From: a virus
Lineage: Duplodnaviria; Caudoviricetes
IMG/VR virus record: IMGVR_UViG_3300017747_001801
Span: 1 to 34,273 of that record
Strand: one strand, 5' to 3'
DNA: 34,273 nucleotides
A program made the position numbers and the translations under genes. Each line of letters opens with the position of its first letter. Position 1 is the first letter of the stretch. The notes below the pieces were generated by a model. That model saw only the letters and a program-made list of their open reading frames with translations, ran no database searches and was not told where the DNA came from. Positions 3,661 to 25,847 of this stretch are shown in pieces.

Positions 3661-4073
3661 AGCTGGTCACGGATCAACCCGGCAGCCCGCCAGTCATTTG
3701 GGAGTGGATGAACAGGCAGACGCGTCTGCCTTGGTCGAGTGATCTGCGTTGCATTGCTGCGATGCGTGATGATGGAACGATTGCTTGTGCTGTTGCTTTC
3801 AATGCGTGGACTGAGCAAGCGTGCTGGATGCACGCGGCGTTTGATCATGAGCACGCGCTCACGCGTTCGCTGTGGCGTGCGGCGTTTGAGTATCCGTTCA
3901 TTACATGCGGCAAGTCTGCCGTGTATGGCCTGACGCCAAAGCACTTGGAAGAGGCGCTCAAGATGAATCGGAAGTTGGGATTTAAGGAGATCGCGCAGAC
4001 AATTGACTGCGTGATGTTCGAGATGAAAGTCGAAGATTGCCGTTGGCTAAAAGGAGCTAAACATGGGCGGTAA
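3657..4073 (+). CDS. GNAT-fold acetyltransferase-like protein (podovirus internal virion protein A-like)
   Basis: 138 aa with N..A.K.N.KLGF-like GNAT C-terminal motif (EEALKMNRKLGFKE); standard position between nozzle and ejection genes. Confidence 0.65.
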   Translation: MKLVTDQPGSPPVIWEWMNRQTRLPWSSDLRCIAAMRDDGTIACAVAFNAWTEQACWMHAAFDHEHALTRSLWRAAFEYPFITCGKSAVYGLTPKHLEEALKMNRKLGFKEIAQTIDCVMFEMKVEDCRWLKGAKHGR

Positions 4074-6540
4074 GGGAAGAGCGCCAGCCGCGCCGGATTA
4101 CGTCGGCGCTGCTCAGCAGCAAGCGGCAGCTTCCAGAGAGCTGACCAATGTTCAGAACTTTGCGAACCGCCCGACGATCAACACGCCGTTTGGTTCGCAA
4201 TCTTGGCAAACCGGCAGCACCGTTGATCCTGCAACGGGTCAGACGGTTACGTCTTGGACCCAAAACAACACTCTTGCGCCTGAGCTTCAGCAGGCGCTTG
4301 GGGCGCAGATTGGTTTGCAGAATGAGCGCAGCCAGCTTGCGTCTGACTTTATGGGGCGCGTGGAACAGGAATACCAGCGTCCGTTTGACTGGCAGAGCTT
4401 GCCCCAAATGGCTGGGCTCGATCAAACAACCAGCCTCAACACGCAAGTTGCTGATTACACGCCCGCGTTGCGCACAGATGTAGCTCAACAAGGTGTTGTC
4501 GGAGGTTTCAATTTTGGTGGCCCTCAAATGGGCGTTGCTTCGTTTAACGAGGCAATACAGGGTGGTGTTCCGCAGTACGGGTTGCAGACGTCATTTGATC
4601 CAATGATGTCTAGCCTTCGCACTAACACGCAGCAGTCTCCCGTATCCACATCGTTTGATCCGATGACGGGCGGCGTGCAGCGTGGCGTGCAAAACCTTGA
4701 CGTTAATAGGCAATTCAACCCTATGACTCAAGGAATCACATCGTCCTTGCAGAACACGAGTGTTGACACTGGGTTTACACCCATGAACAACAACATCAGG
4801 TCTTCAGTGCCCAACATAGCTGTTGACACTCAGTTTGACCCGATGGCTAACGACATCAGAAGGTCAGTTCAGAACTTCAATCTTGATGCCAGGTTTACGC
4901 CAATGATTGGCGATTTGAGCCGAGGCGTTCAAAGAGAGTCTTTGCAGCGCGGCTTGAATATGGGTGACAACCCAGCTTTGCCGCAGTTTGACTCTAGCTA
5001 TCGTGACACTGTGGCTCAGTCTTTGATTGAGCGTATGCAGCCTGTGCATGAGCGTCAACAACAGCAACTTGAGACGCAGTTGGCCAATCAGGGCTTTACG
5101 GTTGGTAGTGAAGGCTACACGCGTGCTTTGGCGGATTTACAGGCGCGTCAAGCTGCAGAGCGTTACAACGCTTTGGATACCGCAGGCAACGAAGCTCAGC
5201 GTCTGTTCAACATGGGCATGGGTGCGCGTCAGCAAGCCTTCCAAGAGGATGTGACTGGCGGTCAGTTTTCCAACGCTGCTGCCCAGCAAGCATTTCAGCA
5301 AGGTTTGTCTGCAAACCAGTTTCAGAACCAGGCTACGCAGCAAGCATTTCAGCAAGACATGGCGGCGCGTCAAGCGGCTAATCAAACGCTTGGACAGCAG
5401 TTTGGTCAGAATATTCAGTCCGCTAACTTTGGCAATCAAGCAATTCAGCAAGCGTTTAATCAGAACGTTGCTGCGCGTCAAGCTGCCAATCAAGCGCGTG
5501 GGCAGCAATTTGTACAGAACCTGCAATCAGCAAACTTTGCTAATCAGGCGTTGCAACAGGGCTTTCAGCAAGACATGGCTGCAAGACAGGCGGCAAATCA
5601 GGCCCGTGGTCAGCAGTTTGGACAAAACCTGCAAACCGCCAATTTTGGCAATCAGGCTTTGCAGCAGGCTTTTCAGCAGGATTTGGCTGCAAGACAGGCA
5701 GCCAACCAAGCGACCGGCCAACAGTTTGGGCAGAACTTGCAGGCGGCAAACTTTGGCAACGCTGCTTTGCAGCAGGCTTATCAACAGGCGCTTGGCGCTA
5801 CGCAGGCGGCTAACGCTGCACGCGGGCAGGAATTCCAACAAAACTTGGCTGGCAACCAGTTTGCCAATCAGGCTATTTCGCAGGGATTCCAGCAGAACAT
5901 GGCGGCTGACCAAGCCAGCAATGCCGCGTTGAATGCTCAATTTCAGCAGGGTCTGTCTGCCGGTCAGTTTGGCAACGCTGCTGCAAATCAAGCGTTCCAG
6001 CAAAACTTGGGCGCTGCACAATTTGGCAACCAAGCGCAGCAGCAGTTGTTTGGTCAAAACCTGTCACAGGCTGACTTGGCCAACCGTGCTGCAGCACAGG
6101 CATTCAGCCAAGACCTTGCAGCTAATCAGTTCAACAATCAGGCGCTGGGCCAAGCGTCTGCGTTGGATTTGGCGCGGATGCAAGCTCAAAACAACGCGCT
6201 TGCACAGCAGCAATCTCTGAATCAGAGCTTTGCTGACCAGCAAAACCGACTGCGCCAGCAGGCGATTGCAGAGCAGATGCAGCGCCGTGGCATGTCGCTC
6301 AACGAGATGAACGCGTTGCTGTCTGGTCAGCAGGTCGCTATGCCGCAAATGCCATCGTTTGTGTCTGCTGGCCGCGCCGAGACGCCCAACATCTTGGGCG
6401 CCACGCAGATGGGATATGACGCGGCTCTTGGCGCGTACAACGCTCAGCAGGCGGCTGGCGCCAATATGCTGGGTGGTCTGTTCTCTTTGGGTAGCGCGGC
6501 AATGGGTAATCCCGCTGGCTTGTTTGGATTTGGAAGGTAA
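4063..6540 (+). CDS. Internal virion / DNA ejection protein with Q/A/N-rich repeats
   Basis: MGGKG..PAAPDY start, TPFGS motif, LANQG...GSE.Y core and hydrophobic Gly-rich C-terminus typical of ejection proteins; AAGGAG RBS. Confidence 0.7.
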   Translation: MGGKGRAPAAPDYVGAAQQQAAASRELTNVQNFANRPTINTPFGSQSWQTGSTVDPATGQTVTSWTQNNTLAPELQQALGAQIGLQNERSQLASDFMGRVEQEYQRPFDWQSLPQMAGLDQTTSLNTQVADYTPALRTDVAQQGVVGGFNFGGPQMGVASFNEAIQGGVPQYGLQTSFDPMMSSLRTNTQQSPVSTSFDPMTGGVQRGVQNLDVNRQFNPMTQGITSSLQNTSVDTGFTPMNNNIRSSVPNIAVDTQFDPMANDIRRSVQNFNLDARFTPMIGDLSRGVQRESLQRGLNMGDNPALPQFDSSYRDTVAQSLIERMQPVHERQQQQLETQLANQGFTVGSEGYTRALADLQARQAAERYNALDTAGNEAQRLFNMGMGARQQAFQEDVTGGQFSNAAAQQAFQQGLSANQFQNQATQQAFQQDMAARQAANQTLGQQFGQNIQSANFGNQAIQQAFNQNVAARQAANQARGQQFVQNLQSANFANQALQQGFQQDMAARQAANQARGQQFGQNLQTANFGNQALQQAFQQDLAARQAANQATGQQFGQNLQAANFGNAALQQAYQQALGATQAANAARGQEFQQNLAGNQFANQAISQGFQQNMAADQASNAALNAQFQQGLSAGQFGNAAANQAFQQNLGAAQFGNQAQQQLFGQNLSQADLANRAAAQAFSQDLAANQFNNQALGQASALDLARMQAQNNALAQQQSLNQSFADQQNRLRQQAIAEQMQRRGMSLNEMNALLSGQQVAMPQMPSFVSAGRAETPNILGATQMGYDAALGAYNAQQAAGANMLGGLFSLGSAAMGNPAGLFGFGR
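4594..4953 (+). repeat. Six in-frame 60-nt (20-aa) repeats F[DNT]PM...
   Basis: FDPMM, FDPMT, FNPMT, FTPMN, FDPMA, FTPMI begin at 4594, 4654, 4714, 4774, 4834, 4894. Confidence 0.85.
5230..6255 (+). repeat. About 19 in-frame 54-nt (18-aa) repeats QQAFQQ.L...QF.N.A, including six 36-aa higher-order units at 5338-5985
   Basis: Direct reading of the translation; 54/108-nt periodicity in the DNA. Confidence 0.85.
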
Positions 6541-11969: not shown

Positions 11970-12433
11970 TTGAGGCGCTGTTCTCCTTCCTTGGCGGAAG
12001 CGTCTTCCGCATGATCTGGGGCGAAGTGTCTGCTTGGTACAACAAGCGCCAAGACCACGCTCATGAGATTGAGCGCATGCGCCTGCAAAGCGAGATGGAA
12101 GACAAGGCGCATGAGCGCATGCAGGCCGCGCTGACTCTGCAGCACCAGCTTGGCATCCAGATGGTTGAGGCCAAGGCCGAAGCGGACGTTGCCGTAGCCG
12201 AGGCCAGCGCGTTTGCCAAGGTTATGGAAAACGCCTTCAAGCCCACCGGCTGGGCTATCGTGGACATCTGGAACGGCATCATCCGCCCGTCTGCGGCCAC
12301 CATTGCGCTCACGCTGTGGGTGCTCAAGCTGGCTTCGCAGAACTGGAAAATGGATGAGTGGGACGTCACCTTGGCGGGCACCGTGCTGGGCTTCTTCTTT
12401 GCTGACAGGTCGCTTGGCAAGCGTGGGAAATGA
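11966..12433 (+). CDS. Putative holin (3-TM type)
   Basis: GTGA-coupled start MIEALFSFLGG; IRP...T and GFFF..RSL.K motifs; directly upstream of the lysozyme. Confidence 0.65.
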   Translation: MIEALFSFLGGSVFRMIWGEVSAWYNKRQDHAHEIERMRLQSEMEDKAHERMQAALTLQHQLGIQMVEAKAEADVAVAEASAFAKVMENAFKPTGWAIVDIWNGIIRPSAATIALTLWVLKLASQNWKMDEWDVTLAGTVLGFFFADRSLGKRGK

Positions 12434-12873
12434 GCGCCATACAGGTTGCGCGTGACCTGTGCTTGGTGTTTGAGGGCATGTACCTCAAGCCCTACCTGTG
12501 TCCCGCAGCAGTCCCCACGATTGGCGTTGGCAGCACGTTCTACGAGAGCGGCACCCGCGTATCGCTCAAAGACCCGCCTATCACGCGTGAGCGGGCTATG
12601 GCGCTTTTGGAGTGGGAGCTAGAGCACTGCCTGCCGCGTGTACTAAAGCTCTGCCCTGGGCTTCCTGCGTGGGGCGAGCAGGCCACCGGGGCCGTCCTTG
12701 ATTTTGCGTTCAATTGCGGCACAGGCGCCCTGCAGAACAGCACCCTGCGCAGGCGTATCAACGAGGACGATGACGCTGGCGCCCGCACAGAACTGATGAA
12801 ATGGGTGCGAGGTGGTGGTAAGGTTCTGCCCGGACTGGTCCGAAGGCGGGCCGCAGAATGTTCGCTCATTTAG
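12430..12873 (+). CDS. Endolysin, GH24 phage lysozyme
   Basis: E-8aa-C-5aa-T catalytic triad (FEGMYLKPYLCPAAVPTIG), DFAFN.G, STL.R.IN, KW..GGG.VLPGLVRRR.AE. Confidence 0.92.
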   Translation: MSAIQVARDLCLVFEGMYLKPYLCPAAVPTIGVGSTFYESGTRVSLKDPPITRERAMALLEWELEHCLPRVLKLCPGLPAWGEQATGAVLDFAFNCGTGALQNSTLRRRINEDDDAGARTELMKWVRGGGKVLPGLVRRRAAECSLI

Positions 12874-13055
12874 GGCACAAAAATGGCACACGGTGAGTGC
12901 CGAGGTGAGCTAAGTGCTTGATCGGAGAGGTGTCCGAGCGGTCGAAGGCGCTGGACTGGAATCGCGTTTTCGCAACAACAAAACCAAGCAAAACAAAGGG
13001 TTATCAGCACCTCACAGTTGCATTTCTCGCACAATCACGGCACACAAATGACACA
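12874..13055 (+). other. attP-like site 1: arm repeats, IHF-like sites and 39-bp core equal to the 5' half of tRNA-Ser(GGA)
   Basis: GGCACA-N5-GGCACA 12874-12890; TAAGTGCTTGAT 12911-12922; core GGAGAGGTGTCCGAGCGGTCGAAGGCGCTGGACTGGAAT 12924-12962; AAACAAAGGGTTA 12991-13003; CGCACA/GGCACA/GACACA at 13028/13039/13050. Confidence 0.8.
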
Positions 13056-13065
13056 AGGATGTGCT

Positions 13066-13251
13066 GTGAAAGATGACTCTTCCCAAGTTTGTCTGCGCGA
13101 GCTTAGCGAACTCAGAGACACCAACAAGAGACTGCTAGAGGTGCTCTGGCGCATTGCGGCTTCAGATCCAAATCACAAGCACTTCGCCACGTTGGTGATG
13201 GCCGAGGTCAGGGAGGCCATTGAGTTTGCTGAAGATTCCTCCCTGCTATGA
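13066..13251 (+). CDS. Small hypothetical protein (61 aa)
   Basis: AAGGA RBS before GTG 13066; stop overlaps the MTase start (ATGA). Confidence 0.55.
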   Translation: MKDDSSQVCLRELSELRDTNKRLLEVLWRIAASDPNHKHFATLVMAEVREAIEFAEDSSLL

Positions 13252-14252
13252 ACCGCGTCGAATTTGGAGACTGCCGCGACACGATGCGGCGCTGGGCTAT
13301 CGAAGGCGTGAAAGCCCAGATGTGCGTCACCAGCCCACCATACTTTGGCCTGCGCGACTACGGACATAAAGGCCAAATTGGGCTTGAGCAGACACCAGAG
13401 GAATACATTGCCGCGATGGTCGAAGTGTTCCGCTGTGTGCGCAATGTGCTGGCCGACGATGGGACGCTGTGGCTAAACATTGGTGACAGCTACAACAACT
13501 TCCGCAGCCAAATGGGGCCGGGACAATCCGTTCACGGGCGTGACAAACTGAACGGGAAACCAGACGTAAAGGCGAAAAAGCGCGGCGTCGACGGCCTGAA
13601 AGAAAAAGACCTGATTGGCATCCCTTGGATGCTCGCTTTCGCCCTACGCGCAGACGGCTGGTATCTGCGCCAAGACATCATTTGGCACAAGCCCAACCCG
13701 ATGCCTGAGAGCGTGCGCGACCGCTGCACCAAGGCGCATGAGTACATCTTCCTGCTGTCGAAGTCGGAGAGGTATCTTTTTGACAGCGAGGCGATGCAGG
13801 AGCCTGCGACGGGGCGTGACCCTGGGAACATCACGCCGCACAAGCACGCAGGAGAGCGGTTTGCGGAAACGAAGTCCAACCTAGCCAGCGTTGGGGCGCG
13901 TGAAACGCGCAATCGCCGCAGCGTCTGGACTGTCGCCACACGCCCCTACAAAGGCGCTCATTTCGCCACGTTCCCGCCCGCGTTGATCGAGCCCTGCATC
14001 CTTGCGGGTTCACGCCCTGGTGACATTGTGCTGGACCCGTTCATGGGGTCAGGAACCACTGCGCAGGTTGCCATGCAACATGATCGAAAATATCTTGGAT
14101 GCGAACTCAATGAGGATTACGCTACTTTGCAACAGCAGAGACTTTTTGGAATCCAGCAACAAACGCGCTGCTTGTTCGATCAAGCGGACAAGCTGGACTT
14201 CAACGGCACAAAAATGGCACATTGCATCCAGCACCCGCATGCAAGTCTTTGA
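13248..14252 (+). CDS. Orphan DNA methyltransferase, beta class N4-C/N6-A (N6_N4_Mtase family)
   Basis: Motif IV TSPPY before motif I DPFMGSGTT; IIW.KPNPMPES, H.ATFP; no cognate endonuclease adjacent. Confidence 0.93.
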   Translation: MNRVEFGDCRDTMRRWAIEGVKAQMCVTSPPYFGLRDYGHKGQIGLEQTPEEYIAAMVEVFRCVRNVLADDGTLWLNIGDSYNNFRSQMGPGQSVHGRDKLNGKPDVKAKKRGVDGLKEKDLIGIPWMLAFALRADGWYLRQDIIWHKPNPMPESVRDRCTKAHEYIFLLSKSERYLFDSEAMQEPATGRDPGNITPHKHAGERFAETKSNLASVGARETRNRRSVWTVATRPYKGAHFATFPPALIEPCILAGSRPGDIVLDPFMGSGTTAQVAMQHDRKYLGCELNEDYATLQQQRLFGIQQQTRCLFDQADKLDFNGTKMAHCIQHPHASL

Positions 14253-14385
14253 TTGGAGAGGTGTCCGAGCGGTCGAAGGCGCTGGACTGGAATTCGGTCT
14301 AGCCCAAAAAAAAGCCCCTGCAATCAGGGGCTTAACTCTTGCGAGAGGAGAGCTGCCGGTTAACCGGCGGCACGATTCTGGCACA
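14205..14385 (+). other. attP-like site 2
   Basis: GGCACA-N5-GGCACA 14205-14221; CAAGTCTTTGATT 14242-14254; identical core 14255-14293; AATCAGGGGCTTA 14322-14334; GGCACG-N5-GGCACA 14369-14385. Confidence 0.8.
14306..14333 (-). terminator. Intrinsic terminator for the leftward int transcript
   Basis: AAGCCCCTG-CAAT-CAGGGGCTT hairpin next to an A8 run (U-tract on the minus strand); overlaps an IHF-like site. Confidence 0.7.
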
Positions 14386-14388
14386 TGG

Positions 14389-14592
14389 TCACGGCCTAAC
14401 ATTACCCTCGACATTTTTCTCGATCCATCGGGTAAGACGCGCCAGTTCTTCCGCAGTTTTGTAATACCTCTTGGCAGTTTCATGGTTCCCGTCATGTCCT
14501 GCCGAGATGGACATTTCTTCAAAAAACTCCATCGCCATGCTGGCAAATGTGTGAGCGTCCAAGTTAATGCGCAGGGAGTTTGTGTAGTTCAT
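14389..14592 (-). CDS. Small hypothetical protein downstream of integrase
   Basis: 67 aa ORF with purine-rich leader, filling the gap between int and att2. Confidence 0.55.
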   Translation of the reverse strand: MNYTNSLRINLDAHTFASMAMEFFEEMSISAGHDGNHETAKRYYKTAEELARLTRWIEKNVEGNVRP

Positions 14593-14604
14593 AGTGCTCT
14601 TTCT

Positions 14605-15555
14605 TCAAAAATTGATGCGCTCTGCAGCCGCTGCCAGATGCGACGGCGCAAAAGCAACGTACCTCTGCACCATGCTGTGCGAGGCCCAGCCGCCAAGTTC
14701 CTGCAGTACCTGAATCGGCGTACCCGCCTGAGCGTGCCAGGACGCCCAGGTGTGGCGCAGGTCATGGAACCTGAACCCCGGCACGCCCGCCTTTTCGCAC
14801 GCGCTCTGCCACACGCTGCGGCTGATGTGCGCGATGCCAAACACAGACCCATGACGGTGCGGCAGCGCCTTCAGCAGCGCCACAGCGGCCTCATTGAGCG
14901 GCACAACGATCTGCTTGCCGCCCTTGGCGTCTTCAGGCGCCACCTTGGCCGTCGCCGCCTCAAGGTTGACAGCATCCCAGCGCAGGCCAAGGACATTGGC
15001 GCGGCGTAAGCCGGTGAGCATCGCAAACCGCACGGCAGGCCGGTACTTGGGCAGCAGGTTAGCCAACAGCGCCTCTGCCTGCTCACGCGTCAGGAACGTC
15101 TCGCGCTTGTTGTTCTCGCGCTCAGCCTTGATGAACGGGGCGCGGTCGATCAAGTCCCACTCGCGCTCTGCGGCCTTAAGGATGGAGCGGATGAGCGCCC
15201 GGTATCGGTTGCGAGTGGCGGGCTTGGCGTCCTTGGGAAGAATCTTCTCAACACGCTCCCGCGTGATCTCGCTCAACTGCCTGGCGCCCAGCTTGGGCTT
15301 GATGAGGCCAATGCGCAGCTTGTCTGTCTCTATGCTGCGCTTGCCTGCCTTCTCAATCAGCCAGCGGTCGCACGCCTGCCCAAACGTGCATTTTGGGCGC
15401 TCCTTGAGCACGCCCACGCGCCAGAGTTCACCAACGCGCATGTCATGCGCCTGCTTGGCTGCGGCTTTGTCGCCGGTCTTGAGCGATTCCCGGATGCGTT
15501 TGCCGTTGATCTGGACATCGAGCCAGTACACTTCATTACGCAGCTTGAGGGCCAT
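14605..15555 (-). CDS. int: Tyrosine recombinase / integrase
   Basis: N-terminal arm-binding beta domain (YWLDVQINGKRIRESLKT), TGLRRAN (R), K, HDLRHT (HxxR), LGGW (H/W), MVQRY (Y); CAGGAG RBS. Confidence 0.95.
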   Translation of the reverse strand: MALKLRNEVYWLDVQINGKRIRESLKTGDKAAAKQAHDMRVGELWRVGVLKERPKCTFGQACDRWLIEKAGKRSIETDKLRIGLIKPKLGARQLSEITRERVEKILPKDAKPATRNRYRALIRSILKAAEREWDLIDRAPFIKAERENNKRETFLTREQAEALLANLLPKYRPAVRFAMLTGLRRANVLGLRWDAVNLEAATAKVAPEDAKGGKQIVVPLNEAAVALLKALPHRHGSVFGIAHISRSVWQSACEKAGVPGFRFHDLRHTWASWHAQAGTPIQVLQELGGWASHSMVQRYVAFAPSHLAAAAERINF

Positions 15556-16074: not shown

Positions 16075-16319
16075 GCTTCGCCTTTCACCAGCTTCTCAAT
16101 CTCCCGTGCGAACTTGATAGGCGCTCGCCCAGTGAACTGCGTTCTGTCCCATGCGGCTTCAATGTCCTCGATGCACAGCGGGCTGAACAAGTGACTGCGT
16201 AGACGTTCTTTCTCAATGACCAGCTTGCGAATCTCCGCGTGCAGCTCCTTGCAGATGCGCTCATGCGTGTCTGCGCTGATGTAGTTGCCCGGTGGCAACA
16301 CCTCAAAGTTCCCGGTCAT
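16071..16319 (-). CDS. Hypothetical protein
   Basis: 82 aa, 4-nt overlaps with both neighbours; FAREIE ending common in phage early proteins. Confidence 0.6.
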   Translation of the reverse strand: MTGNFEVLPPGNYISADTHERICKELHAEIRKLVIEKERLRSHLFSPLCIEDIEAAWDRTQFTGRAPIKFAREIEKLVKGEA

Positions 16320-17485
16320 GGCTGGAAACTCCTCAACGTGTCGAGTGACTTGCTGATGCGCGTTTTCTTCTCGCGCACAGTCTGCGTGTCGCGCTTGGTG
16401 GGTATCGCGTCCAAGTCATCGCTGGGCATGTCGGGCCACGGGTCAACCGCCGTGGGCTTGACCACCTTGGCGGTGGTGAACACCTCTTTCATCGCGCCCA
16501 CATCCTCAATCAGTGAGCCTGGGCAGTGCTCCAGCTCACGCGATGAGAAACGCGGCTCAGGGCCGGGGCCGTTGCTGAACTGCTTGCCTGACGCCTTGTG
16601 CGTATAGATGACATAGTTGTCGCCGCCGTCTGTGGGCGTGGCATACGGCACCAACGCGGGGATCATCAGGTGGTGCTGACATCCGTGCCGCTGCATGTTG
16701 ATGGAAATTGCCTGTTTGTCGAGTTCACAGCGCCATTCAGCCTTTGTCGCTGGCGTGGCGTGGCAGCATGTTCTGCAGTTGGATTCCGCTGCCTTGTCGC
16801 CGTGGCACACGGGGTGGAAGTTGCACATCTTGCACTGCCAGTGCGCTGGGTCTTCTGACAGGCGCTGCGGGGGCTCTGTCATGTCAATGAGGCGCTGTGC
16901 CTTCAGCAGCAGTTGCTTGAAGCGATCCTCATCAAAATGGACCCATTCGGTATGCACATCATCTGTGTTCTTGTTGACCCCCATATACAGTGCGCGGTCA
17001 ATCTCCATGAGGCCCATGTAGACCTGCATCTGATCGTAGTGCTGGGGCTTGGCCTCTTTGACCTTCTTGGCAACAAGTGCCGTGTATGACTTGTCGTTGT
17101 GTGTTTTGAACTCCAGCACGCAGGGGGTCTTTGGCGCCTCTGGCACGCCTTGAGCCACGCCATCAAGGCTGCCGCCGAAGTGGCCGTTGCACGCGCTCAC
17201 GCGCCACTGTGCGCCCGTGTCAGGGTCTGTCTCCCAGACAGTCGCGCCAATGCCGCGCAGCTCTTCAATCAGGCGCGGCTCTTCGCGCACGCCACTGCTG
17301 AACAATCGCAGGATGCGGCCAGGAAACGATGGCTTGAGCGCCCAGCGCCATGTGTTCCAGATGTAGCGTTCGCACTCATGGCCGATAAGGCTGGCGCCCA
17401 TGTGCGGCCTGTGCTCTTGCGGCTTGCTCTCGTACCACTTGACGATGGCCGCGCTGGTTGTGTGTTGGCTCATGGGTATCTTCAT
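16316..17485 (-). CDS. PD-(D/E)XK exonuclease (Cas4-like, with Cys cluster)
   Basis: H.GAS.IG..C.R, GSLDG, LEFKT, QMQVYM, C..C.....C motifs. Confidence 0.85.
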   Translation of the reverse strand: MKIPMSQHTTSAAIVKWYESKPQEHRPHMGASLIGHECERYIWNTWRWALKPSFPGRILRLFSSGVREEPRLIEELRGIGATVWETDPDTGAQWRVSACNGHFGGSLDGVAQGVPEAPKTPCVLEFKTHNDKSYTALVAKKVKEAKPQHYDQMQVYMGLMEIDRALYMGVNKNTDDVHTEWVHFDEDRFKQLLLKAQRLIDMTEPPQRLSEDPAHWQCKMCNFHPVCHGDKAAESNCRTCCHATPATKAEWRCELDKQAISINMQRHGCQHHLMIPALVPYATPTDGGDNYVIYTHKASGKQFSNGPGPEPRFSSRELEHCPGSLIEDVGAMKEVFTTAKVVKPTAVDPWPDMPSDDLDAIPTKRDTQTVREKKTRISKSLDTLRSFQP

Positions 17486-18059: not shown

Positions 18060-18785
18060 TCAGGCGATTGCCTGAGCGAAAGACTCCCAAGACATCGGGA
18101 TTGAGTCAGGGAGCGAATAGCGGTTCTTTGCCATGTAAGCGGGGCGCTCGCTGGTGTACAGCAGGCGCTCTCCCGTGCTGATGCCACGGTTTGACGTCTT
18201 GTTGAACCCGACGTCATCCTTCTTGATCAGCGTCTTGTAGTTGGCGAACAGCACAGCGTCTGCCCACTCGCGCAGGATGGCGTTGCTACGCTCTTGCAGC
18301 TTGGGCTGGTAGCGGTCGAAGGGCTCAACCTCGGGCGAGTCAAACCGCTTGATCTGCGTATGCGCGATCAGTATGACCACCATGCCCTTGTCGTTGCGCA
18401 GCGTGTTCAGGCCAGCCAGCACCTCACGCCACTTGTCGGCGACGATCATGGCGCCCTTCCCGTAGGCCAAGTCTTTTGCGTCATGCGTGGCTTCGACCTC
18501 AGCCCAGATGAGGTTATCTAGCCAGTCCACGCTATCAAGCACCACAGTGCCGAAGTCATGGGGCTCAGTGACCAGCGAGCCGATGGCATCCAGCACTTCG
18601 CTGGCCTTGGTAGCCAGCGGGAAGTGATCGACCTGCAGCGAGCCAAGACCGTCTTCCGTGCAGATAAAGATGGGCTTTGGCGCTTGTGACGCGAAAGTTG
18701 TCTTACCGATGCCTTCGACGCCGTAGAGGAAGATTCTTGGCGCCGCGAGGGCTGTGTTTTTCTTGATGGACTTGAGGTTAAACAT
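18060..18785 (-). CDS. AAA_24 / Sak4-like recombination ATPase
   Basis: Walker A YGVEGIGKTT, TEDG, VVLDSVDWL, YGKG, AKNRY. Confidence 0.88.
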   Translation of the reverse strand: MFNLKSIKKNTALAAPRIFLYGVEGIGKTTFASQAPKPIFICTEDGLGSLQVDHFPLATKASEVLDAIGSLVTEPHDFGTVVLDSVDWLDNLIWAEVEATHDAKDLAYGKGAMIVADKWREVLAGLNTLRNDKGMVVILIAHTQIKRFDSPEVEPFDRYQPKLQERSNAILREWADAVLFANYKTLIKKDDVGFNKTSNRGISTGERLLYTSERPAYMAKNRYSLPDSIPMSWESFAQAIA

Positions 18786-24049: not shown

Positions 24050-24233
24050 CCGGGACATTTCGCTAGTAGGGTCTTTTTGTGCCGGGACATTTACCGGGAC
24101 ATGAACCGGGACAAAGCCGGGACAAAGCCGGGACATCGGGACATCGGACAACTACGCACCGGGACAGACAGGGACATATACCGTAGGTATGTCCCGATGT
24201 CCCGGTAAGTGTCCCGTCCCGGTCCTGTGTCCT
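24050..24233. repeat. Putative replication origin with GGGACA iterons
   Basis: Nine GGGACA copies on +, then inverted TGTCCC copies around the palindrome GGGACATATACCGTAGGTATGTCCC (24171-24195), immediately after the primase-helicase stop. Confidence 0.75.
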
Positions 24234-25273: not shown

Positions 25274-25301
25274 AGTTGAGTGATGTGGTAGGCTTTTGGG
25301 C

Positions 25302-25847
25302 ATGCAGGAAACGCAACATGTGACGGGGCTGATTTCCGCGCCGCTGCCGCCTCAGCCTCCGAAGAAGCAGCGGGGCAAGCCGTTTGTGAGCGGCGACCCA
25401 CGCGGCAACACCAAGGGGCGCCTGCCAGGGCAGCACAACGCCTTGACGCGCTCGCTCAAAGAGGCTGTGGAGATCGCCGCCAGGGACTGCCACCCGCAGG
25501 GGCTGGCGGGCTGGCTGGTGGACCGGGCCAATGGCGGCGTGCAGGACCGCGCCATCTTCGCCACGATGGTGTCGAAGGTCATTCCGATTCAGGTCAACCA
25601 GTCGGTGCAAGGCGGGATCAGCATCAGCTTGAACTGGCTTGCGGGCCGCAACATCGGCACAAAAACGGCACACGCCGAGATCGTGGACGCGCAAGTGGTT
25701 GATGCCATTGAGCATTCCCCGCAAAGTCACTGGACTAACAATGCTCAGCCTGATGCACAAGGGATTGCAGGGGCTACGAGCCACGCTGAGGACGTCAGGC
25801 TACCTATCCCTTCGCCGCCTGATTCAAGCGGGCCTGAGGGCCGCTAG
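25302..25847 (+). CDS. terS: Terminase small subunit
   Basis: KPF..G...N.KGR.PG..N..TR.LKEA basic N-terminus, K.IP.Q motif, upstream of terL; start uncertain. Confidence 0.7.
   Translation: MQETQHVTGLISAPLPPQPPKKQRGKPFVSGDPRGNTKGRLPGQHNALTRSLKEAVEIAARDCHPQGLAGWLVDRANGGVQDRAIFATMVSKVIPIQVNQSVQGGISISLNWLAGRNIGTKTAHAEIVDAQVVDAIEHSPQSHWTNNAQPDAQGIAGATSHAEDVRLPIPSPPDSSGPEGR
25656..25747 (+). other. att-like half site embedded in terS
   Basis: GGCACA-AAAAC-GGCACA 25656-25672, CAAGTGGTTGAT 25692-25703, CTGGACT 25730-25736. Confidence 0.5.

Follow-up and report, generated by a model that had tools for sequence, protein, structure and literature searches.

A putative integrase-less cassette between two attachment sites of a temperate phage at tRNA-Ser

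The window, a phage record of 34,273 nucleotides (34.3 kb) that was analysed over its whole length, carries two two-armed attachment sites, att1 and att2, which bracket a unit of 1331 bp. We propose, with a probability of about 65%, that the 1331 bp between the cores are an integrase-less, att-bounded, CIME-like cassette that is gained and lost by the phage integrase (Int) at the anticodon loop of a tRNA-Ser gene. The comparison with related phages points to a site-specific slot, apparently built from the phage's own attP, which is filled or empty in natural populations.

The virion and lysis genes lie on the left of the record, followed by the att region and then by genes for integrase, resolvase, exonuclease, a Sak4-like protein, repressor, primase, terminase, and portal. 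The att region thus has the lysis genes on one side and int on the other, the order of an excised temperate phage genome. DNA related to the window was found mainly in freshwater sequencing runs. Four kinds of arm were distinguished: phage-left (PL), cassette-right (CR), cassette-left (CL), and phage-right (PR). The features of the region are listed below.

12430..12873, + strand: endolysin gene (PF00959, E 3e-31; phrog_7), whose stop codon abuts the att1 left arm
12874..12890, + strand: att1 left arm pair (PL), likely Int arm-type sites; PL is 96-99% identical in 7 relatives of the window lineage
12911..12923, - strand: att1 left IHF-like box, 1 mismatch to the IHF consensus
12924..12962, + strand: att1 core, 5' half of tRNA-Ser(GGA) (tRNA genes in L002 and L179), with the anticodon loop, the likely place of crossover, at 12956-12962
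12963..14293, + strand: cassette unit of 1331 bp, made up of the CR end, the cargo, the CL end, and the second tRNA half; its removal gives the L095/L106 junction
12991..13003, + strand: att1 right IHF-like box in the cassette end CR, 1 mismatch
13028..13055, + strand: three att1 right arm words at 11-bp spacing (CR), from arm-word matches
13066..13251, + strand: 61-aa ORF in the cassette, no match in Pfam, PHROGs (77-aa form), or NCBIfam
13248..14252, + strand: orphan N6/N4 DNA methyltransferase, 334 aa (PF01555, E 1e-53), with SPPY before FMGSG
14205..14221, + strand: att2 left arm pair (cassette end CL), from arm-word matches and the alignment of relatives
14242..14254, - strand: att2 left IHF-like box, 0 mismatches
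14255..14293, + strand: att2 core, which repeats the 5' half of tRNA-Ser(GGA), with the loop at 14287-14293
14304..14334, - strand: terminator-like hairpin facing int, in PR, overlapping the att2 right IHF-like box (14322-14334)
14369..14385, + strand: att2 right arm pair (PR), from arm-word matches
14389..14592, - strand: 67-aa ORF between PR and int, no family in Pfam, PHROGs, or NCBIfam
14605..15555, - strand: tyrosine integrase, 316 aa (PF00589, E 6e-28; phrog_1), with the catalytic R, HxxR, and Y motifs in its sequence
16316-17485: exonuclease gene near the Sak4-like gene (phrog_124 / phrog_1990 searches)
18060..18785, - strand: Sak4-like annealing protein (phrog_124 / phrog_1990 searches), a possible rival route of exchange

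The closest solved chain to the window integrase was that of HP1 integrase (E 8e-9), and no integrase of a cultured phage exceeded 42% identity to it. A 257-bp stretch at 14387-14643 is private to the window strain; it harbours the 67-aa ORF and alters the last codons of the integrase. In its place, 38 bases stand in the contigs X2-X4 of other sequencing runs, and it is absent from L001 and L011. Small ORFs between int and att were also variable in L049, L059, L063, and L077. A promoter scan gave 1 site against 0.8 expected, and ARAGORN and Rfam found no whole tRNA and no known RNA in the window. Elsewhere in the record, an 825-aa protein of the virion region (4063-6540) contains a long Gln/Ala/Asn-rich repeat with periods of 18 and 36 residues, and direct and inverted repeats of CCGGGACA cluster immediately after the primase gene at 24063-24220. 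This CCGGGACA cluster is likely a replication origin.

The two cores form an exact 39-bp repeat starting at 12924 and 14255, an offset of 1331 bp; the longest exact repeat in simulated windows (n=40) was 18 bp. A 17-bp arm pair lies at -50 from the core start in both sites, and the window holds five arm pairs, whereas 200 simulations gave 0.12 on average and never more than 2. IHF-like boxes stand directly before the core (1 mismatch in att1, 0 in att2) and at +67 (1 mismatch in each site), in a window that contains 29 such boxes on both strands. The earlier note on this DNA had described two two-armed att sites with a shared 39-bp core, and the repeat, arms, IHF-like boxes, and simulations confirmed this description. 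It had also placed GGCAC[AG] repeats at +114/115 and +125/126. The positions were correct (+115 and +126 in att1, with a third word at +104, and +114 and +125 in att2), except that the att1 word at +126 is GACACA, with one mismatch. The spacers between the motifs, which had been called unrelated, indeed share only 3/20, 12/28, and 5/24 identical bases between att1 and att2. Directly after the CR arm words follow a ribosome-binding-like word and then the first start codon.

The core pair is identical in the window record only, and 4-5 base differences were found in 8/8 two-site relatives. The allele shared by the two cores of the window occurs in no relative and no host site, and its private base, at tRNA position 10, would not pair correctly in the D stem. 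The shared private allele is due either to recent conversion or to a consensus made in assembly, and the system does not depend on it. As a separate observation, an arm pair that has no core but does have an IHF-like box at att-left spacing lies at 25656-25704 within ORF 25296-25847, a small-terminase-like gene. It was found at the equivalent place in G001, G002, and G003, with synonymous positions of the arm words conserved in 4/4, and may be a site for Int or a packaging protein or a by-product of the protein motif.

The core represents the 5' half of host tRNA-Ser(GGA), and its last seven bases are the anticodon loop, as read from the full genes in L002 and L179. According to the available part of PMC10865867, the usual attP core is the 3' half of a tRNA. 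In the available part of the Islander study (PMC4383910), 5' tRNA fragments are the rarer form (159/3919 islands) and the anticodon loop is one of three crossover subsites. An 18-base core word was present in 142/201 genomes of one family in the class of a Stenotrophomonas record (140/199 without the two unpublished genomes G902 and G827) and in 1/401 genomes drawn from the class at large. We infer that this family is the likely host group. No copy of the target tRNA was found in 301 genomes of the family of G007, in which none of 7 matches had the tRNA 3' stem in the matched word, nor in 5 further records searched.

An IHF-like box in this position is not peculiar to the phages: one also stands directly before the native tRNA-Ser, without arms, in 32/401 family genomes (L225-L254). 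These native boxes may have been left behind by past elements or may belong to attB. Two host loci carry a tRNA-Ser 5' fragment 141 or 167 bp upstream of the full gene (L199:1339-1480, + strand; L201, - strand, 1313-1480), which may be tiny 5'-type insertions or scars in host genomes. Furthermore, the 3' end of the same tRNA-Ser(GGA) is occupied, at L002:246-1588, by an unrelated integrative element, whose tyrosine integrase has 413 aa.

Relatives were found by core and integrase scans; duplicate records were merged and the window's own record (L119/L120) was dropped, and 11 coding-noise metagenome loci and two error-rich host tRNA loci (L099, L122) were also left out of the counts. Eight distinct two-site relatives were obtained, with cassettes of 916-1662 bp (L012, 1662 bp; L016, 916 bp; L019, 1148 bp; L021, 1535 bp; L022, 1415 bp; L024, 1125 bp; L109, 1193 bp; L110, 1616 bp), and several of these arrangements occur in more than one record. 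Five distinct relatives had a single site (L017, L018, L095, L104, L106), and the arrangements in L108, L113, L118, and L020 were partial. The empty form reads PL-core-PR and the filled form PL-core-CR-cargo-CL-core-PR. L095 and L106 have exactly the att1-left of the window joined to its att2-right, namely the empty junction, and L104 is the empty counterpart of L021 with the same type of junction.

In the window lineage, in which the phage arms are 85-99% alike to those of the window and the integrase is 96% identical where measured, the slot contains the methyltransferase (window), a TGT-like gene with Vut_1 (L012), an ART-PolyVal-like gene (L022, L109, and L110, three different ones, with or without small ORFs), or nothing (L095, L106). 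The contents in other lineages are a second methyltransferase (L016), an ART-PolyVal-like gene (L019, L021), an HTH-like ORF with a GNAT-like gene (L024), or nothing (L104); only 1/5 of the ART-PolyVal matches was above the Pfam cut-off, and the GNAT match was just under its own. The earlier note had proposed a search for relatives with no, one, or several cassettes. Empty (5) and filled (8) forms with changing cargo were found, and no record had more than one cassette. A non-autonomous cassette, as it had suggested, was likewise supported.

The independent runs consist of contigs that mostly break at the core, and X2 and X3 look like one data set. In X2 the core is joined to the CR arm of the window. 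In X2, X3, and X4 the methyltransferase end, 91-93% alike, is joined to CL and an allele-B core. X6 contained the filled form as well as a host-allele core joined to PR, that is, the empty junction; a weak joint at 190-1284 (side 26) was left out of use. An assembly chimera of two phage variants, a concern raised earlier, could have produced the identical private-allele cores as a collapsed consensus, and no contig of the other runs spans the whole stretch. Even so, this explanation is hardly credible, since the two-site layout recurs in eight other arrangements and both cassette junctions are bridged in other runs, core-CR in X2 and methyltransferase end-CL-core start in X2, X3, and X4.

The arms of the cassette differ in history from those of the phage. 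Identity of CL to PL was 57% on average (maximum 69) and that of CR to PR 55% (maximum 67). PL and PR track the phage, whereas the cassette arms form separate lineages common to several phages: pairs of phages with 56-71% similarity in their own arms have cassette ends that are 83-99% alike. Between L022 and L021, for example, CR and CL are 97% and 94% identical, against 67% for PL and 63% for PR; between L109 and L019 the corresponding values are 99% and 96% against 70% and 65%. L113 carries 672 bp of the cassette of L012 at 99.4% ahead of a different phage-right arm (PR2 background), and integrase identity to that of the window is 79% in the PR2 background (L016) versus 96% in L012. At the sequence level, CR and CL carry the same core, arm words, and spacing as PL and PR. 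The CR types are 56-76% identical to each other, yet their arm words and IHF-like boxes stay at fixed spacing.

These data also bear on the alternative, offered in the earlier note, that the stretch is the relic of a co-integrated phage, fixed after tandem integration, trimmed by deletion, and immobile. The cargo genes are common in phages, and a co-excised tandem pair gives two hybrid attP sites; moreover, CIMEs arise by such decay according to the available part of PMC5704250, so that the first origin of the cassette may well be this. As an account of the present state, however, the relic is highly improbable, because no lysis or int remnant lies beside CL or CR in 9/9 complete cassettes and the CL and CR lineages are separate from PL and PR. 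As a recent event it has little support, and it is largely refuted by the near-identical cassette ends in different backgrounds (L113/L012, L022/L021); the existence of empty forms also weighs against it.

Next to the arms, the alleles of the tRNA half were compared. The 26 distinct sites comprised 10 PL-CR, 9 CL-PR, 5 PL-PR, 0 CL-CR, and 2 host-type sites, with arm classes defined from the same records and two edge sites skipped. Allele B of the tRNA half was found in 9/9 CL-PR sites and the host allele in 10/10 PL-CR sites; allele B occurred in 0/67 host sites read, and the att1 halves match host alleles A and C. The constant presence of allele B in CL-PR sites indicates that the cassette includes the second tRNA half, and that att2 crossovers lie mostly to the right of this half. 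Allele B also stood behind a phage-left arm in 2/5 single sites (L095, L018), which, together with the private allele shared by the cores of the window, requires exchange to the left of the loop. Taken with the cargo variation inside shared ends, these single sites indicate that homologous exchange also acts, perhaps by the Sak4-like protein. Indeed, the cassettes of L019, L109, and L110 have like ends and different interiors, so that cargo changes without Int as well.

Similarity changed at +39 to +43 in 14/15 att1 pairs and at +39 to +45 in 9/11 att2 pairs, the remaining change points (3/26) being at +81; these 26 informative pairs are not independent. Homologous recombination at any point of the core would equally leave a similarity break at its right end. 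In an alternative reading, cores and arm boxes would be mere short homology linkers, with the block swapped or deleted by the Sak4-like protein or RecA and only one site used by Int. The Sak4-like and exonuclease genes of the window, allele B in 2/5 single sites, the identical cores of the window, the mosaic cargo inside common ends, and the change points at +81 are all compatible with linkers. We nevertheless regard this explanation as unlikely, because linkers would not need arm words and IHF-like boxes at fixed spacing, which are kept across 56-76% CR identity, and because the alleles, linked 9/9 and 10/10 in filled phages, would be mixed if crossing-over within the core were free.

If the 1331-bp unit is instead a CIME-like cassette moved by Int, a lysogen would excise via its inner site and leave the cassette stranded in the host tRNA as host-5'-CR-cargo-CL-B-host-3'. 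A later empty phage would integrate at the right junction of the stranded cassette, and both would excise together to give PL-core-CR and CL-B-PR; exit through the inner site would yield an empty phage. This accretion model predicts the layout seen here by ordinary reactions only, and the filled and empty forms match, in their sequences, the products of co-excision with a helper phage. Int-promoted exchange between att sites of co-infecting phages is known for lambda. Such recombination between co-infecting phage genomes could give the same products and would be indistinguishable here. Besides the Int route, homologous exchange, both in the core and within the cargo, likely contributes.

The methyltransferase has SPPY before FMGSG, the motif order of the beta class, and its last codons read through the att2 left arm (CL). 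Nine close relatives are 313-347 aa long. Among the best 80 phage relatives in the 10/64 parts of the collection scanned, none had two arm pairs within 1.5 kb. The enzyme thus ranks among the common phage genes. The cassette contains no restriction partner for it, and the methyltransferase likely shields the phage from host restriction. No recombinase match was found in the window cargo or in 16 cargo ORFs of relatives, which gave one weak HTH match and one HTH-like ORF. A switchable methylation module had been suggested for the stretch; since 6/8 complete cassettes of relatives have no methyltransferase, a general cargo slot fits instead. The cargo kinds are methyltransferases and ADP-ribosyltransferase-like, acetyltransferase-like, and TGT-like genes, and they seem to be ordinary phage accessory genes acting on DNA or host proteins.

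Several proteins share a similar N-terminus and differ by a swapped C-terminal domain, either ART-PolyVal-like or GNAT-like (L003:1454-2416, L101:5106-6035, L094:566-1429, L109:275-1282, L110:281-1342, and L008:2848-3495). By analogy, such cargo may resemble polyvalent or injected proteins. One cassette also encodes an 82-aa HTH-like ORF without a family match (L008:2582-2830), which could be a directionality factor.

In all cassettes the cargo runs in the tRNA direction away from att1 and begins right behind the CR arm words. A strong hairpin was present in 10/10 folded PR reference rows, and none was found beside the A-tract in the CR of the window. The two sites might therefore be alternative integration points, entry at att1 placing the cargo behind the host tRNA promoter and entry at att2 placing it at the far prophage end, which would make the stretch an expression switch more than a mobile unit. 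The cargo direction, the terminator-like hairpin in PR past att2, and the match of the att1 halves to host alleles A and C would agree with a switch. It is nonetheless quite improbable: the contig and family-genome searches gave no prophage junction for either use, the cargo of a sister clade is antisense to the tRNA, and the empty forms and the cassette ends common to distant phages are left unexplained.

Integrated forms were searched for in several collections. Matches to attL were 0/19 in genome_contigs (all protein-coding noise) and 0/40 in metagenome_contigs, and arms were present in none of the 30 loci read from those 32 family genomes whose tRNA follows an IHF-like box. Five host genomes with two tRNA copies were rejected as integration cases because the copies were contig-end duplicates. 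L099, a candidate attR with an IHF-like box before the tRNA, was likewise rejected, as 32/401 family genomes have the box and arms occurred in 0/30 of those read. The earlier note had proposed to look for the cassette alone in host tRNA-Ser genes. Such a stranded cassette was found in none of genome_contigs, metagenome_contigs, and the 401 family genomes, and no prophage of the clade, the positive control for such a search, came up there either. The 1331-bp circle that it had predicted also received no support, since a CL-core-CR junction was present in 0/26 distinct sites and in none of the joints listed in the contigs of other runs. These circles are part of another, tentative reading, a phage analogue of the integron based on the lambda-type integrase of freshwater temperate phages. 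Cassettes of ~1 kb with genes that modify DNA or host proteins would form a pool common to several phage lineages and move between them as free circles or through exchange of one att site with another; whether the phage integrates by att1 or by att2 would decide if the cargo comes under the host tRNA promoter. We consider this reading possible at best, and the comparison with integrons is given below.

A repeat scan covered 79 integrase loci, of which 14 were too short, and 55 distant loci were tested. Two of the 55 had a tRNA-derived double core, both in a sister clade, and two had chance repeats; the two-site trait is thus patchy. In this sister clade, whose integrase is 57-61% identical, the core is the 3' half of another tRNA-Ser and the two-site form occurred in 2/9 contigs; the hairpin lies in the phage arm, and the cargo begins behind the cassette arm, antisense to the tRNA. 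The same arm words accompany cores that, when read by eye, correspond to tRNA-Cys and the 3' half of tRNA-Ser(CGA) (L048, L072, L086, L087, L090; L041, L060, L063). In sister integrase loci whose target tRNA reads as His, an apparent whole tRNA copy lies beside a short att core downstream of int (L025, L049, L051, L059, L064, and L065), an arrangement reminiscent of tRNA-dependent lysogeny (PMC10865867). One arm code across tRNA-His, -Cys, and -Ser targets would suggest repeated retargeting.

Homologous or illegitimate recombination is commonly regarded as the main route by which phage accessory genes spread. If Int drives the cassette, it would provide a precise route by which phages trade counter-defence and host-takeover genes, and would extend CIME accretion from conjugative elements to virions. 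The system would then also offer a small natural substrate for asking whether an integrase of the lambda type handles a two-armed site like attL or like a second attP. In the literature searched, which was largely open-access, no case came to light of a phage genome whose two attP sites enclose an exchangeable cassette; supplementary island tables could hold such cases.

Compared with known systems, the window sites resemble attP of the lambda/HP1 type, in which a heterobivalent integrase binds core and arm sites: they have a tRNA fragment reaching to the anticodon loop, direct repeats of arm type, and IHF-like boxes on both sides. They differ in that there are two attP per genome and the 5' tRNA half is carried. 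Integrons consist of IntI, attI, and attC cassettes. The cassette shares with them a promoter-proximal slot and exchangeable, apparently promoter-less genes beside a tyrosine recombinase, and differs in the lack of IntI and of attC hairpins, in its double-stranded arm-type sites, and in holding at most one cassette. The window integrase scored 30.9 bits against the integron-integrase model TIGR02249 (cut-off 265). When the bottom strand was folded, att1 did not stand out from shuffles (z -0.8, -0.6), and the values for att2 (z -2.3, -2.4) were owed to the terminator and the tRNA D arm. No cassette-cassette junction, as expected of arrays, was seen in 26 distinct sites. The term integron-like used in the earlier note thus holds as an analogy only, with the integrase below cut-off, no attC-type hairpin, and never more than one cassette.

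The RS1 and TLC satellites beside CTX phage at dif are likewise tandem elements at one site that are mobilised by a helper, but in contrast to the cassette they depend on host XerCD, can replicate, and are packaged on their own. HE-PICIs, in the available part of PMC10111431, are passengers inside a helper phage genome that excise with it, as is proposed for the cassette; those elements bring an integrase and replication genes of their own and disrupt a late gene. The cassette, in contrast, has neither integrase nor replication genes and shares the att core of its helper. The closest parallel is with CIMEs. According to the available part of PMC5704250, these have lost integration and transfer genes and keep attL and attR, a new element integrates in attR, and the resulting tandems transfer together. 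Like the CIMEs in accretions of the ICESt1/ICESt3 type described there, the cassette has no integration or transfer genes, keeps its att ends, and lies at a tRNA target; it is also, to judge from its sequence, joined to an active element through chimeric att sites and would be moved with it. The differences are that the carrier is a temperate phage with the composite in free phage genomes, that the cassettes are ~1 kb with shared ends and polymorphic across phage lineages, and that the stranded chromosomal form, which defines a CIME, was not found for the cassette. Taken together, these comparisons suggest that the system works like a CIME joined to an attP of the lambda/HP1 type; it is neither an integron nor a HE-PICI.
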